DNA from: an uncultured Ruminococcus sp.
GTDB taxonomy: Bacteria; Bacillota; Clostridia; Oscillospirales; CAG-272
DNA: 39,722 nucleotides
Direction of reading: 5' to 3'
Assembly: GCA_964397225.1 (NCBI GenBank)
Contig: CAYNHY010000002.1
Coordinates: 1 to 39,722 of the forward strand
Each line of letters starts with the position of its first letter. The first letter of the stretch is position 1. Below, piece after piece: positions 72 through 39,722 of this stretch. A program made the position numbers and the translations under genes. The notes beneath the pieces are model-generated. The model did no database searches, was not told the DNA's origin, and saw only the letters and a list, made by a program, of their open reading frames with translations.

Positions 72-146
72 TGGAGCTGGTGATCGGAGTCGAACCAACA
101 ACCTGCTGATTACAAATCAGCTGCTCTGCCATTGAGCCACACCAGC
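72..146 (-). tRNA. tRNA-Thr (anticodon TGT) with encoded CCA
   Basis: The reverse complement reads GCTGGTG-TG-GCTC-AATGGCA-GAGC-A-GCTGA-TTTGTAA-TCAGC-AGGTT-GTTGG-TTCGACT-CCGAT-CACCAGC-T-CCA. It folds as a cloverleaf with anticodon TGT at loop positions 34-36. Confidence 0.85.
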
Positions 147-34855: not shown

Positions 34856-35665
34856 ATGAAAATCGAAGGAAAGCTCGCCTTTATCGGCGTCGGCTTCATG
34901 GCGGGCGCAATGATAGACGGAATACTCGGCGCGGGACTTATCGCGCCGGAGAATATATACTGCATAAACGACGCCTTCCCCGACGTCGCGAAAAGCGCGG
35001 CGGAGAGTCACGGAATAGCCTGCCGCACGGCGGAGAGCCTTGCGGAGTGCGACACCGTGGTATTCGGGATCAAGCCCCAGGTGCTTCCGGAGGCGCTTTT
35101 GATGTACGGAGAGTATCTTACCTCCGACAAGCTCTATTTTTCGATAATGGCGGGAATATCGACCGCGCGTCTCGAGGATGCGCTCGGCGGCGCACGCGTC
35201 GTTCGCTTTATGCCGAATATGCCGCTGTCGGTCGGACGCTCGGCTACCGTATACGCGCTCGGAAGCGCTGCGGGTGACGCCGAGGCGGCACTTGCGGAGG
35301 CTGTTTTTGCTCCGCTCGGAATAATCAGACGCGTCGAGGAGGACATGATCTCGGCATATACGGCGCTTTCCGGAAGCGGTCCGGCATATATTTGCCGCAT
35401 GGTCGAGTCCATGGCTCGCGCGGCGGTCACGCTCGGAATTCCCGAGGACGCGGCGGAGGCATTTGCTGTGCAGACGCTCGTCGGAACGGCGCAGGTCATC
35501 GATCAAAACGGAATTTCTCCCGCGACCCTTCGTGCGAGAGTTACCTCGAAGAAGGGAACGACGGAGGCTGCGCTCAACTCGCTCAATGCATCCGATTTTG
35601 ACGTGACGGTCGAGGACTGCATGAAGGCATGCCTCAGACGCAGCGACGAGCTTGCAAAGGCGTAA
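34856..35665 (+). CDS. proC: pyrroline-5-carboxylate reductase
   Basis: 269 aa. It begins with the Rossmann N-terminus FIGVGFMAGAM and carries the C-terminal motif VTSKKGTTEAAL. Confidence 0.9.
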   Translation: MKIEGKLAFIGVGFMAGAMIDGILGAGLIAPENIYCINDAFPDVAKSAAESHGIACRTAESLAECDTVVFGIKPQVLPEALLMYGEYLTSDKLYFSIMAGISTARLEDALGGARVVRFMPNMPLSVGRSATVYALGSAAGDAEAALAEAVFAPLGIIRRVEEDMISAYTALSGSGPAYICRMVESMARAAVTLGIPEDAAEAFAVQTLVGTAQVIDQNGISPATLRARVTSKKGTTEAALNSLNASDFDVTVEDCMKACLRRSDELAKA

Positions 35666-35718
35666 GACTTGAGCTTAGTTATCAATTGCCGCCGAACGGC
35701 GGAGAAACGGAGAATATT

Positions 35719-36921
35719 ATGGCAGAAAAATATCCTTTTTCAATGTGGGTGTACAACCCCACGTCGGACTTTACTACCGATGAGGTCGGGGTGTGGAAGG
35801 AATGCGGAATGACAGTTCCGATGACACCCTCGATCCCATGCAGCGAGGAGGGCGTTCGCGCAGTAAAGCCCTTCCTTGACCGCGCAGCGGAGCTTGGAGT
35901 GAAGATGATCGTCAATTGCGCCGGTCTTTCCTACGGAGACCTCAAGTATATCAGCGAGGAGCAGCTTGAACAGAATCTTCGCACAGTATACGAGCCCCTC
36001 AAGGGTCACCCCGCGCTTTACGGCTTCTTCATCGGTGATGAGCCGAGCGATAAGGAGTCGCTTGAGGCAACAGCCAAGTGCTTTGAGATCCATCACCGCG
36101 TAGCTCCCGAGCTGAAAGCATATGTGAACCTTTGCGGCGACACCCCCGAGCTTTCAAATGAGGTTCTCGGAGGTCGCACACTCGAGGAGTACTTCAAGTA
36201 TATCCGTGAGAAGGGCGCAAGCTTTGCAAGCCTTGACCTTTACGGAAGCATGATCAACGAGAAGACTCTCAGAGATGATATTTACTCACTTAAGGTAGTC
36301 GTCGGTGCAGCCGAGAAGGCTGGTCTCGACATTTGGGCGAACACGCTCTCGAGCGCACACTATGCATTCAGAAAGCCGAACTATCACGAGCTTCTCTGGC
36401 AGATAACCGTTCCCGCAGCCTGCGGCTGCCGCGGTAATATTTGGTTCCGTTTCTACGATCGCAAGACCGGACACGAGTACTTCGGCTCTCCTATCGACGA
36501 GTATGGCAATAAGACTGAGGCATACTACGATATGCTCCGCGCGCAGCGCCGTTTTGCCGATCATTACGGCGAGATAATGCCGACGCTTCGCAGAAAGAGC
36601 ACATATATGCTTGGCGACAACATCACCGATGTTTTCCCGCGCTTTAAGGACGGCGATCACGACCTTGTCAAGGTCAGTGCGGTCTGGGATGACATTCTCG
36701 TCAGCTTCTTCGAGGATGACAACGGACAGGAATACATTTGTGCCGTTAACGCAATGACGAAGATACACGGCTCGGTGAATATCGAGTTCGACCCCGAAAA
36801 ATGTGCCGTTCGCGAGGTCACATTCAACGGCGCGGATATCGGAGGAAGCCCTGAATCCGGTAAGGAAAATATCCCGCTGTACGCCGGACAGATGCGCCTG
36901 TTCAGAATAGACAGAAAGTAA
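35719..36921 (+). CDS. hypothetical protein, possibly glycoside-hydrolase-like TIM barrel
   Basis: The start was re-assigned to MAEKYPFSMW (ATG at 35719), with GGAGA upstream. It is 400 aa. The segment YGFFIGDEP resembles clan GH-A strand-4 motifs, but I cannot assign a family from sequence alone. Confidence 0.5.
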   Translation: MAEKYPFSMWVYNPTSDFTTDEVGVWKECGMTVPMTPSIPCSEEGVRAVKPFLDRAAELGVKMIVNCAGLSYGDLKYISEEQLEQNLRTVYEPLKGHPALYGFFIGDEPSDKESLEATAKCFEIHHRVAPELKAYVNLCGDTPELSNEVLGGRTLEEYFKYIREKGASFASLDLYGSMINEKTLRDDIYSLKVVVGAAEKAGLDIWANTLSSAHYAFRKPNYHELLWQITVPAACGCRGNIWFRFYDRKTGHEYFGSPIDEYGNKTEAYYDMLRAQRRFADHYGEIMPTLRRKSTYMLGDNITDVFPRFKDGDHDLVKVSAVWDDILVSFFEDDNGQEYICAVNAMTKIHGSVNIEFDPEKCAVREVTFNGADIGGSPESGKENIPLYAGQMRLFRIDRK

Positions 36922-37002: not shown

Positions 37003-37031
37003 TTGACAAGTTGGGCGAGCGGTGGTATAAT
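37003..37031 (+). promoter_or_regulatory. consensus sigma-A promoter (TTGACA-17-TATAAT) driving the T-box leader
   Basis: TTGACA at 37003-37008 and TATAAT at 37026-37031. Confidence 0.75.
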
Positions 37032-37039
37032 AACGGCAA

Positions 37040-37314
37040 CTTATTCAAATGCGTTGATGGAATTATTCCTCCGCTTTGCCACATTTCAGAGAGTCGGCGG
37101 CAGGTGCGAGCCGATATTGGCGGTGGATGTGAAGTCTCATTTCGGAGCAGAGTCGTCGAATTACAGTAAACGGCTACGGAGGACCCCGTTATCATGGTCG
37201 GGAGCTTGCCTGAGCTCTGACGAGTTGACCGTTTTTCTTGACGGTAAACAGGGTGGTACCGCGAAGCATTTCGTCCCTGAAATCGGATTATCCGATTTCA
37301 GGGCTTTTCTTTTT
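37040..37314 (+). promoter_or_regulatory. T-box riboswitch leader (probable Leu CUC specifier; Val GUC alternative)
   Basis: Elements seen are the AG box AGAGAG (37088-93), the distal-loop-like GGCAGGTGCGAG, the F box CCGTTA (37186-91), and the T-box core AGGGTGGTACCGCG (37250-63). The antiterminator shares CCCT with a 13-bp terminator, CCCTGAAATCGGA-TTA-TCCGATTTCAGGG, plus CTTTTCTTTTT (37275-37314). Confidence 0.85.
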
Positions 37315-37363: not shown

Positions 37364-38748
37364 ATGAACAAGGTCAAAATTGCCGATGCCACGCTTTGCC
37401 GTGAAGACAGAAGCTTCAGCTTTAAGGAGAAGCTTGAAATCATCCGCCAGCTTGATCGCATGAAGTGCGACATTATCGAGCTGCCCGAGATCGCAAACCC
37501 GAAAAGTGATATTCTGATGGTGCGTACAGCGTCATCCTTTGTGAAAAACAGCACGCTCTCCGTCGCTGCGGGAAGCTCCGCCGAGAGCATCGAAAATGCC
37601 GCTGCCGCACTCAGCTCGGCGTCCCGTGCGAGAATTAAGATAACACTCCCCACATCGTCTGTCGGTATGGAGTACTTCATGATGAAGAAGCCCGCCGCAA
37701 TGCTTGAGTGGATCGAAAAGGCGGTAAAGCTTGCCGTGTCTCACGTCGCCGAGGTTGAGTTCTGCGCCGTTGATGCGACAAGAGCCGAAAGGAGCTTCCT
37801 TGACGACGCTATCCGCACGGCAGTTGGCGCCGGAGCGTCGTATGTCAGCGTTTGCGACAGCGCCGCCGAAATGCTCCCTGATGCATTTGCAGCCTTCACA
37901 GAGAGCGTTGCAGCCTGTGCCGGCGTTCCCGTCGGTGCATCCTGCTCCGATAAAAACGGTCTGCCGTAGCCTCCCTTACGATGGCGGCTTGCCGCGGTGT
38001 GTCGTTTGTCAAGTGCGCCGTTGACGGTGAGAGCGCGCAGACCGAGACCTTTGCGACACTTGTCAAAAACTGCGGAGAGAGCTTCGGCATCTCCTCCGAC
38101 ATTACCTATACCGAGCTCCACCGTATCACCGAGCAGCTTCGCCGCATTACCGGAAGCGCAAAGAGCGAGAAGTCGGTGAGCGCACCGTCGGCAGACGAAA
38201 ACGACGGAGTCAGCCTTGATGCTTCCGACACCGTCGAAAGCGTTTCCACCGCTGTCGCACGACTCGGCTACGACCTGTCCGATGAGGACTGCGCCCGCGT
38301 TCACGAGGAGATCGGACGCGTCGGTGAGAAGAAGAGGGTCGGAGGTGCGGAGCTTGAGGCGATAGTCGCCTCGGTAGCGCTCCAGGTGCCCGATTCCTAC
38401 AAGCTTGTCAGCTATGTTGTAAACAACGGTAATATTATCAATTCAAGCGCGCAGATCACACTCGAGCGCGACGGACGCACACTTGTCGGCGTCTCTCTCG
38501 GTGACGGTCCGATCGACGCTGCCTTCCGCGCGATAGGTCAGGTCACGGGAAGCAGCTATGAGCTCGATGACTTCATGATTCGCTCCGTAACGGAGGGTCA
38601 GGAGGCTATCGGAAACGCAGTCGTAAAGCTTCGCTTCGAGGGCAGACTGTATTCCGGAAACGGCGTGTCCACGGACATCGTCGGCGCAAGCATCAGAGCA
38701 TACATAAACGCCGTAAACAAGATCGTTTACGAGGAGCATAACGCGTAA
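37364..38748 (+). pseudogene. LeuA (2-isopropylmalate synthase)-like gene with degenerate active site, intact LeuA C-terminal regulatory domain, and one frameshift near 37963
   Basis: Two track ORFs (37364-37969 and 37981-38748) are collinear with LeuA. ...SCSDKNGL (frame 1) continues as AVASLTMAACRGVSFVKCAVDGESAQTE (frame 2), matching HCHNDLG-AVAN...ING-GERAGN. The second ORF has no RBS. The C-terminal segment GDGPIDAAFRAI...GVSTDIVGASIRAYINAVNK is the LeuA dimer/regulatory domain. This could equally be an intact gene with a 1-nt assembly error. Confidence 0.7.
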
Positions 38749-38766: not shown

Positions 38767-39722
38767 ATGAAGCTTTCTTTTTCAACAAAGGGCTGGCACG
38801 AGTGCAGCTTTGAGGATTTTTGCAACACTGCGCACGACCTCAAGTTCGACGGAATCGAACTGCATAACGTAAACGGTGCTCTCTTTACCGATCGCGACGG
38901 CGCGTTTCACGATTATTCTGCGGCGGCGACACTGCGTATGCTTTATGACCGCGAGCTTACGATCCCCTGTATCGATACTATCTGCGATATTTCCGCAGAG
39001 GGCGTGACTGATGAGGCTCTCGCCGAGACCGAGAGATGCTTTGAAATCGCACGCTTCTTGCACATTCCGTACATTCGCTTCAGAAGTTGCCGCTGTGACG
39101 ATGACGAGCGCGGAGTCGCGCGCGTCGAGGCGTTCATCGAGCAGGTGCTCCCGCGTGCCGAGGAGCTCGGCATCACGCTTCTTCTCGAGACTTCCGGCGT
39201 TTATCGCGACAGCGCACGCCTTTGCGAGACGCTTGACCGCTTCGCAAGCGACAGCGTCGGCGCACTTTGGAATGTTTCCGAGGCATACTTTGCCGAGAAA
39301 GATCCCGAAGTCATCATAAAGAATCTCGGTGCGTACGTGCGCCTTGTACACTTCAGCGATATCGACGCGACCGACGGCGTAGCCGAGTATCGCCTCGCCG
39401 GCGAGGGTGAGCTTCCCGTTCGTGAGATCGTCTCCGCGCTTAGAAGCGTCAACTACGACGGATTCGTTTCGCTCGTCTGGGATCCCGCATGGTGCGAGGA
39501 GCTTGACGACATGGAGACCGTCCTCACACAGTTCCAGAACTATATGCGTCAGTTCGGAGATCCCTCTCAGAACGAGAAGAACTTCTACTACAACGAGACT
39601 CACACGGGTCGCTTCGTCTGGAAAAAAGACGATCTTATCGACCTCACGTTCTCCGAGGTACTCGACCGCATGGTTGAAGATTTTCCCGATCAGTACGCGT
39701 TTAAGTATACAACTCTCGATTA
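38767..39722 (+). CDS. xylose-isomerase-like TIM barrel (sugar phosphate isomerase/epimerase family) fused to the N-terminus of an AMP-dependent (adenylate-forming) ligase; 3' end beyond the window
   Basis: My own translation from ATG 38767 (RBS GGGAGGAG) stays open to the window end: MKLSFSTKGWHECSFEDFCNTAHDLKFDGIELHN...LLLETSGVY...VRLVHFSD...FVSLVWDP..., then ...DLTFSEVLDRMVEDFPDQYAFKYTTLD. That last part resembles the start of acyl-CoA synthetase-type enzymes. It is absent from the ORF track because it has no stop codon in the window. Confidence 0.7.
   Translation, partial: MKLSFSTKGWHECSFEDFCNTAHDLKFDGIELHNVNGALFTDRDGAFHDYSAAATLRMLYDRELTIPCIDTICDISAEGVTDEALAETERCFEIARFLHIPYIRFRSCRCDDDERGVARVEAFIEQVLPRAEELGITLLLETSGVYRDSARLCETLDRFASDSVGALWNVSEAYFAEKDPEVIIKNLGAYVRLVHFSDIDATDGVAEYRLAGEGELPVREIVSALRSVNYDGFVSLVWDPAWCEELDDMETVLTQFQNYMRQFGDPSQNEKNFYYNETHTGRFVWKKDDLIDLTFSEVLDRMVEDFPDQYAFKYTTLD

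Follow-up and report, generated by a model that had tools for sequence, protein, structure and literature searches.

A LeuA-derived candidate pseudoenzyme of gut and rumen Clostridia, under leucine T-box control and beside an acyl-CoA ligase gene, that may serve as a leucine-sensing subunit

In this study, we analysed a gene that resembles leuA, the gene for 2-isopropylmalate synthase, and that lies at positions 37364-38748 of contig CAYNHY010000002.1 from an uncultured Ruminococcus sp.; the complete contig as deposited at NCBI, 39,722 bp in length, is referred to here as the window. The gene raises the question of what a bacterium gains from a LeuA-like protein in which the catalytic and metal-binding residues have been replaced and the regulatory domain has been retained, and which is placed under the control of a leucine T-box. 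Our results indicate that the gene product is a probable pseudoenzyme descended from bacterial 2-isopropylmalate synthase, which is encoded, or was until recently encoded, in this contig. It appears to be a member of a large and previously undescribed LeuA-derived pseudoenzyme family in gut and rumen Clostridia, and our literature searches found no description of this LeuA-like family, of its operon or of the T-box arrangement. With regard to its function, we give a probability of about one half to the reading that the protein is the leucine-sensing, non-catalytic subunit of an isovalerate-CoA ligase that would act in the route to leucine by isovalerate carboxylation.

The first-pass annotation, made from the letters of this DNA, had described a LeuA in which the catalytic motifs are altered, one segment is deleted and the C-terminal regulatory domain is well preserved, and this description was borne out when profile searches, alignments and a structure prediction were brought to bear on it. 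Of the two Pfam families expected, PF00682 (HMGL-like) matched the N-terminal open reading frame (1.4e-19, 70.9 bits against a cut-off of 29) and PF08502 (LeuA_dimer) the C-terminal one (3.5e-30, 105 bits). Residue-level alignments with the N. meningitidis LeuA (3RMJ) and with a canonical database LeuA (P0263) confirmed every substitution that had been listed for the DTTLRDGEQ, SAEDASR, DTVG, HCHNDLG and GERAGN motifs. The canonical DTTLRDGEQS reads DATLCREDRS, with Cys12 in place of Arg, Arg13 in place of the metal-binding Asp and a four-residue gap that spans the Gln region; SCEDASR reads CAVDATR, the catalytic Glu having become Val136; PDTVG reads CDSAA, with Thr changed to Ser166; and HCHNDLG reads SCSDKNG, both metal-binding His having been exchanged for Ser (S-C-S at residues 193-195). 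The GIGERAGN loop is four to five residues shorter than in canonical LeuA, and the ~38 residues of subdomain I, which include the AHE(A/S)GIHQDG segment and carry the catalytic His/Tyr, are absent. The catalytic Arg, Asp and His, the conservation of which would speak against a pseudoenzyme, are thus all replaced, and the altered positions map to the C-terminal ends of strands beta1, beta5, beta6 and beta7. In the same alignments the regulatory domain keeps GDGPIDA and STDI..AS..AY..A.NK.

We take the invariant Arg of LeuA to be equivalent to R80 of the M. tuberculosis enzyme and R89 of methylthioalkylmalate synthase (MAMS), the catalytic Glu to E218 and E227, and the His of subdomain I to H379 and H388, respectively. 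In MAMS, the variants R89A/K/Q, Q93A/N, E227A/D, H388A/Q/D/E and Y399S are inactive, and the essential metal is held by Asp90, His288 and His290 (PMC11532901). The activity of the M. tuberculosis isopropylmalate synthase (IPMS) is destroyed by R80A/K and E218A (PMC10464499), and it has been reported that IPMS catalysis requires the accessory domain (PMC9860122). The alignments show a protein that should be unable to bind the metal of LeuA and that is without the catalytic dyad.

The fold has nevertheless been kept. In the AlphaFold2 (AF2) model the mean predicted local distance difference test score (pLDDT) is 85.5 and exceeds 90 in the barrel; residues 265-281, the linker that stands in place of subdomain I, fall below 50. 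When the model was compared with known structures using Foldseek, the barrel superposed on the LeuA catalytic domains 3RMJ and 3EWB with a root-mean-square deviation of 2.0 A over 271-279 columns and TM scores of 0.82-0.90, and the top match was MAMS (PDB 6E1J). A sequence search of the PDB with the regulatory domain gave only a marginal match to CimA, and for this reason the leucine pocket was compared by motif conservation alone. Six NCBIfam LeuA equivalog models scored between 165 and 244 bits against cut-offs of 532-748, and none was passed (the best, NF002086, gave 244 against 532); it is because of these low scores that the proteins carry the label 'hypothetical' at NCBI.

The same pattern is found throughout a family of proteins. 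A word-indexed search returned 6,571 relatives, and the best 120 of these are nearly all 457-468 aa long and all possess both domains. HMMER, run exhaustively over 1.8 billion cluster representatives, gave approximately 105 full-length clusters (defined at 50% identity) of 445-500 aa, which are 30-57% identical to the protein, derive from metagenome-assembled genomes (MAGs) of gut and rumen Oscillospirales and are annotated as 'hypothetical'; canonical LeuA proteins (~500-516 aa) rank only below them, from E~1e-50. The orthologs are intact and uniformly 455-480 aa in length. Among the 105 family representatives taken together with P0001, the closest database protein (n=106), the HxH metal site is kept in none, the metal-binding Asp in 8, the catalytic Glu in 25 and the active-site Arg in 34, the last being Lys in a further 26 and Cys in 18, and the GERAGN insert and subdomain I are missing from every one. 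Position 12 can be R, K, C, A or Q and positions 193 and 195 almost any residue; within the barrel, the column entropy lies at the 96th percentile for the Asp equivalent, at the 91st for the first His and at the 84th for the Glu. Mean entropy is 2.34 bits for the barrel versus 1.34 bits for the regulatory domain, which is the most conserved region of the family. Its GDGPIDA and STDI motifs are near-invariant and form the N-termini (N-caps) of two helices, and it is between the corresponding two helix N-termini that the leucine carboxylate sits in LeuA (PMC11057210). In the barrel, the structural DRE-TIM residues D8, D137, R140 and D165 are invariant across the family, and a family-specific M102-E103-Y104 (MEY) motif is conserved. 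Taken as a whole, this conservation pattern is the signature of what appears to be a pseudoenzyme that keeps its ligand-binding module. A Fe-S or Cys-metal site formed by Cys12, Cys134, Cys164, Cys194 and Cys237 was considered and rejected, these residues being conserved in the close subfamily and not family-wide. Three further LeuA-like proteins of 497-516 aa have lost the catalytic motifs in part: P0264 has DTTLCDGEQ and RAY in place of HxH, and P0266 and P0269 keep HxH and are missing the HxxGIH segment. These may represent intermediate stages in the decay of LeuA or cases in which it degenerated independently.

The copy of the gene in the window is itself damaged. The first-pass annotation had treated 37364-38748 as one gene on the forward strand; the LeuA-like homology does run through the whole interval, but it is divided between two open reading frames rather than contained in one, and the importance of the frameshift had been underplayed (Table 1). 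The similarity of the first reading frame to intact orthologs stops at ~37962; frame 1 is open from 37954 onwards, where the longest reading frame with an ATG start is 37981-38748. P0001 is intact, 461 aa long and 98% identical, and is encoded on contig CAYYKO010000002.1 of an uncultured Ruminococcus MAG (locus L001). Nucleotide identity between the two genes is 94%, and they differ by a single indel, 66 synonymous and 13 non-synonymous substitutions. The Nei-Gojobori ratio of non-synonymous to synonymous substitution rates (dN/dS) is 0.053 overall, 0.057 before and 0.049 after the frameshift, and is comparable to that of the neighbouring genes proC (0.064) and proA (0.026); these values show that the gene has been under purifying selection. 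Because the relative is intact and dN/dS is ~0.05, the frameshift in the window copy is either very recent or an assembly error, two explanations that the sequence does not tell apart. Both split products are unique to the window contig in a collection of 15 billion proteins, and a metagenome scan for either allele, with or without the T, gave no match. The LeuA-like gene is the only broken one among the ten genes common to the window and L001, and as the other nine are unbroken there is no sign that the contig is error-prone in general. Programmed frameshifting or transcriptional slippage at GAT-AAA-AAC was also considered and rejected, since the missing base is the T in CTTG, outside the A-run, no slippery heptamer is present and all orthologs are encoded in a single frame.

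Table 1. Positions of the LeuA-like gene, its control elements and other features in the window, with the additional T-boxes of related loci
Feature	Position	Strand	Remarks
tRNA gene	75-146	-	Rfam 68 bits
Open reading frame, 430 aa (392 aa as called in L001)	35629-36921	+	between proC and the T-box promoter; weak sub-threshold DUF4434 match
Sigma-70-type promoter	37003-37031	+	TTGACA, 17-nt spacer, TGnTATAAT; 12 of 12 consensus positions
T-box leader (RF00230)	37045-37281	+	103.2 bits (gathering score 93); the model is matched over its full length
Specifier codon CUC (Leu)	37136-37138	+	followed by A at 37139; Rfam-aligned specifier position
T-box sequence GGGTGGTACCGCG	37251-37263	+	part of the RF00230 leader
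Intrinsic terminator	37275-37303 and U-run, to 37313	+	13-bp stem; overlaps the 3' side of the antiterminator
LeuA-like gene, 5' part	37364-37969	+	frame 2, 201 codons and TAG; most of the degenerate HMGL-like TIM barrel
Frameshift site	37960-37964	+	one T missing after 37962 in comparison with the intact ortholog P0001/L001: GGTCTTGCC -> GGTCTGCC
LeuA-like gene, 3' part	37963-38748	+	frame 1; remainder of the TIM barrel, disordered linker in the place of subdomain I, then subdomain II and the LeuA_dimer domain
Subdomain II	~38233-38376	+	inside the 3' part of the LeuA-like gene
LeuA_dimer regulatory domain	~38383-38745	+	inside the 3' part of the LeuA-like gene
Partner gene, start	38767-39722	+	xylose-isomerase-like TIM barrel (AP_endonuc_2) joined in one protein to an AMP-forming acyl-CoA ligase; runs off the window; 832 aa in L001
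Extra upstream T-boxes in related loci	L017 ~251, ~2889; L042 1168-1402, ~3982; L055 72-320, ~2893; L083 ~199, 2700-2943; L034 1423-1666		

The first indication of the role of the protein comes from the control of its gene. A promoter of full consensus and a T-box leader that exceeds the Rfam gathering score precede it (Table 1), so that the T-box control claimed at first reading is upheld, and the control is leucine-specific in all readable leaders of the family. To follow the gene beyond the window, 80 loci were collected from GTDB species representatives, all of them Oscillospirales-type MAGs from the guts of humans, ruminants and other animals. Of the 75 loci with enough sequence, 67 have the T-box core motif at a distance of 70-150 nt before the gene, and in 66 related leaders the specifier is CUC wherever it could be read, apart from five with CUG, in surroundings of varying bases. 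Fourteen loci were scanned with Rfam, and the leader passed the gathering threshold in 12 of them; in the two exceptions, L002 and L020, the gene is located directly behind genes for 2-oxoisovalerate:ferredoxin oxidoreductase (VOR) and the aminotransferase IlvE. This holds for all T-box-less loci with readable neighbours (L002, L015, L020, L037, L067 and L071), in which the gene directly follows VOR/IlvE and forms one operon with them. A Leu (CUC) T-box also controls the ilv-leu operon of Bacillus. The leucine T-box and the strong promoter together show a gene that should be made when leucine is scarce, that is upon starvation for charged tRNA-Leu, and made together with the ligase protein.

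This ligase is encoded by the next gene. In all 61 loci with enough downstream sequence, the LeuA-like gene is followed immediately by a gene for a fusion protein of ~830 aa that combines a TIM barrel with an acyl-CoA ligase (hereafter TIM-ligase), and the intergenic distance falls between -4 and +6 nt in 64 of 73; the two genes are, to judge from their arrangement, translationally coupled. The pairing holds even in the most distant members tested, which are 30-36% identical. The survey of orthologs and neighbours that had been proposed at first reading therefore returned both the loss of the HxH site and the presence of the TIM-ligase neighbour without exception, and the idea of a non-catalytic LeuA derivative that acts with the downstream enzyme under T-box control is supported, as far as computation goes, for the family as a whole. 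According to its AF2 model (pLDDT 90.6), the fused TIM barrel matches only generic sugar isomerase/epimerase/dehydratase barrels at ~20% identity. An Amidohydro_2 gene comes after the fusion gene in 48 of 55 loci, L001 not being among the 48; the genes further downstream (MetY-like, MetA-like and PheA-like) are variable and are unrelated amino-acid genes. In L002, a stand-alone AP_endonuc_2 gene (1202-2152) is located directly after a ligase with fused helix-turn-helix (HTH), cupin and AMP-binding domains, and the barrel type may therefore be tied to branched-chain acyl-CoA ligases beyond the leucine module. Two distant loci deserve mention in their own right. The partner gene of the most distant member (P0237, 30% identity; L085 2968-4533) has in-frame TGA codons at positions of expected conserved Trp (MKLSFSTYG*), which suggests that the host uses genetic code 4. 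In L086 (3626-7514), a T-box-less LeuA-like/ligase pair is found directly behind a PotABCD-like ATP-binding cassette (ABC) transporter operon that encodes an ATPase with TOBE_2, two permeases and an SBP_bac_1/8 binding protein.

A link to branched-chain metabolism is provided by the genes upstream. In 19 of the 36 loci with at least 7 kb of upstream sequence, the LeuA-like operon lies just downstream of a VOR cluster, and it was never found beside leuA or leuBCD in the 80 loci. The upstream cluster includes one or two HTH-cupin-AMP-binding ligases, the best NCBIfam match of which is MbcS, the branched-chain carboxylate-CoA synthetase of S. aureus, together with a CbiA/ParA-like ATPase, a ferredoxin, subunits of a VorB-type oxidoreductase (544 bits) and the branched-chain aminotransferase IlvE (481 bits), both of which score above the NCBIfam cut-offs. 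The upstream ligases have T-boxes of their own, four of which reach the Rfam gathering score: one of the AUC (Ile) class precedes one HTH-cupin-AMP-binding ligase, and one of the GUA/GUC (Val) class heads the second ligase, which is followed by the CbiA-like gene, the ferredoxin, VorABC and IlvE. The supercluster thus comprises three acyl-CoA ligases, one for each branched-chain amino acid, and each predicted to be gated by the corresponding tRNA. In the work of Allison et al. (1962, 1966, 1971), as cited in PMC7356843, ruminococci make leucine, valine and isoleucine by carboxylating isovalerate, isobutyrate and 2-methylbutyrate. One T-box-gated ligase for each branched-chain amino acid would fit this classical finding.

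According to the model that we favour, the TIM-ligase would activate isovalerate to isovaleryl-CoA, VOR would carboxylate isovaleryl-CoA to 2-oxoisocaproate and IlvE would transaminate 2-oxoisocaproate to leucine. The LeuA-derived protein would bind the ligase as a non-catalytic subunit, and its regulatory domain would sense leucine and so exert fast feedback on the committed, ATP-consuming ligase step. In this model the physical complex, the binding of leucine, the use of isovalerate as substrate and the direction of regulation are inferred. In a wider form, which we regard as possible rather than probable, the whole family would be the leucine-sensing subunit of an unrecognised isovalerate-CoA ligase complex, and the three T-box modules would represent the long-missing gene set for branched-chain-fatty-acid carboxylation, in which an Ile T-box controls a ligase, a Val T-box controls a ligase with VOR and IlvE, and a Leu T-box controls the dead LeuA, the TIM-ligase and Amidohydro_2.

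Several observations weigh against the isovalerate-CoA ligase model. Residues close to the pocket of the regulatory domain are in several cases family-specific (ELDDF here, KLTEY in LeuA), and the ligand specificity of PF08502 can be for Leu or Ile, so that leucine is only the putative ligand here. The best NCBIfam match of the ligase domain is a generic 'fatty acid CoA ligase family' at 673 bits, below the cut-off of 832, and simple activation of isovalerate does not explain the fused xylose-isomerase-like barrel or Amidohydro_2. The physical interaction with the ligase is proposed from synteny and spacing, and no natural fusion of a LeuA-like protein with a ligase was seen among the hits. 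Furthermore, residues of the old pocket (D8, T10, D137, R140 and D165) and the new MEY motif are still conserved, which could mean that binding or catalysis has been retained. Finally, two distant members (30-36% identity) are without a T-box, the window copy is frameshifted and there is no VOR cluster near the gene in the window.

Some of these points have a bearing on other explanations. The conserved pocket-lining residues and the MEY motif of the barrel would also be expected of a structural partner that does not sense anything, in which the dead barrel serves the TIM-ligase or VOR as a scaffold, a chaperone or a subunit that handles the substrate, for instance by binding CoA esters or 2-oxo acids or by channelling, and the regulatory domain is used for dimerisation only. 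The tight translational coupling with the ligase gene agrees with such a role, as does the occurrence of HMGL-like barrels in channelling complexes, DmpG-DmpF being among the Foldseek matches. However, the regulatory domain, including the helix caps that bind the ligand carboxylate, is more conserved than the barrel, which dimerisation alone would not demand, and we therefore think this explanation unlikely. We give somewhat less credence to the idea that the protein is still an active enzyme, with a new metal-independent or differently liganded chemistry, and forms a new pathway of leucine supply with the TIM-ligase and Amidohydro_2. Such an enzyme would account for the conservation of a three-gene operon that holds two further putative catalytic domains, for the invariance of D8, T10, D137, R140 and D165 and for the conservation of Cys12, Cys164 and Cys194 in the close subfamily. 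The former active-site positions are, however, hypervariable across the family, which is unlike an active site, the cysteines are not conserved family-wide, and the deleted subdomain I is the part that covers the active site as a cap and that catalysis requires.

The loss of motifs could also be the erosion of a functionless leuA pseudogene, for which the frameshift in the window copy and the restriction of the split reading frames to this contig might be invoked. This explanation is refuted for the family, in which thousands of intact orthologs of ~460 aa have kept their length, synteny and T-box; for the window copy it has a small residual chance, given that the frameshift is a single event that is absent from the nearest relative and that dN/dS is ~0.05 on both sides of it. 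It would be equally surprising if the protein were a regulator of a genuine LeuA. As LeuA is a domain-swapped dimer with paired regulatory domains and the paralog keeps that domain, the dead paralog might heterodimerise through this interface and modulate LeuA; yet its gene is linked to an acyl-CoA ligase instead of leuA or leuBCD at every locus where these neighbours were looked for.

The isovalerate-CoA ligase model can be set beside several known systems. The LeuA-like protein shares with canonical LeuA the HMGL-like TIM barrel, subdomain II, 29-34% identity and the Leu (CUC) T-box seen in Bacillus ilv-leu, but it is ~50 residues shorter, is without the metal-binding Asp/His/His, the invariant Arg, the catalytic Glu, the GERAGN loop and subdomain I, and goes always with an acyl-CoA ligase and never with leuBCD. 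HisZ is a catalytically dead paralog of histidyl-tRNA synthetase that functions as regulatory subunit of ATP phosphoribosyltransferase. In both cases a dead paralog of an amino-acid-recognising enzyme would be the sensor subunit of the first enzyme of a pathway; however, the folds and partners are unrelated, and the complex and the sensing of histidine are experimentally established for HisZ and inferred here. IlvH/IlvN, the valine-binding regulatory subunit of acetohydroxy-acid synthase (PMC13381585), is likewise a separate polypeptide that bears the branched-chain amino-acid allosteric site of a committed-step enzyme, though it is a small ACT-domain protein and not a degenerate enzyme copy, and its partner is a thiamine diphosphate (ThDP) enzyme and not an adenylate-forming ligase. 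MAMS, too, descends from LeuA and was taken over by a different pathway; there it is catalysis that was retained and the regulatory domain that was lost (PMC11532901), whereas the reverse would have happened in the LeuA-like family. In aldolase-dehydrogenases of the DmpG-DmpF type, an HMGL-like barrel protein and the protein encoded by the neighbouring gene form an obligate complex, but DmpG retains full activity as a metal-dependent aldolase and carries no LeuA_dimer domain. It has furthermore been reported that the isolated PF08502 domain is an autonomous amino-acid sensor (PMC13381585). By analogy, a sensor subunit may thus be supported by such autonomous domains, by the precedents of HisZ and IlvH and by the N-terminal HTH-cupin modules, which bind small molecules, of the Ile and Val ligases themselves.

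The remainder of the window encodes two SLH-domain proteins, a P-type ATPase and a dcw cluster with a penicillin-binding protein (PBP), two Mur ligases and FtsW; by homology to L001, MurG-, FtsQ- and FtsZ-like genes also belong to this cluster, and proB, proA and proC are present. No canonical ilv or leu genes were seen in the 39,722 bp.

The combination of HMGL-like and LeuA_dimer domains does not imply an isopropylmalate synthase, and this caution concerns annotation and with it auxotrophy predictions and metabolic models. The regulatory domain could supply modules for leucine biosensors. If the wider form of our model is true, LeuA, the first enzyme of the classical pathway, would have been recycled as the feedback sensor of an alternative pathway, which would add a case in branched-chain amino-acid metabolism of an enzyme turned sensor subunit, as is HisZ. 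The sixty-year-old isovalerate-carboxylation route would then become testable through genes partitioned by T-boxes, namely three ligases, VOR and IlvE, and a function would be provided for thousands of 'hypothetical' proteins of the dominant gut and rumen Clostridia.

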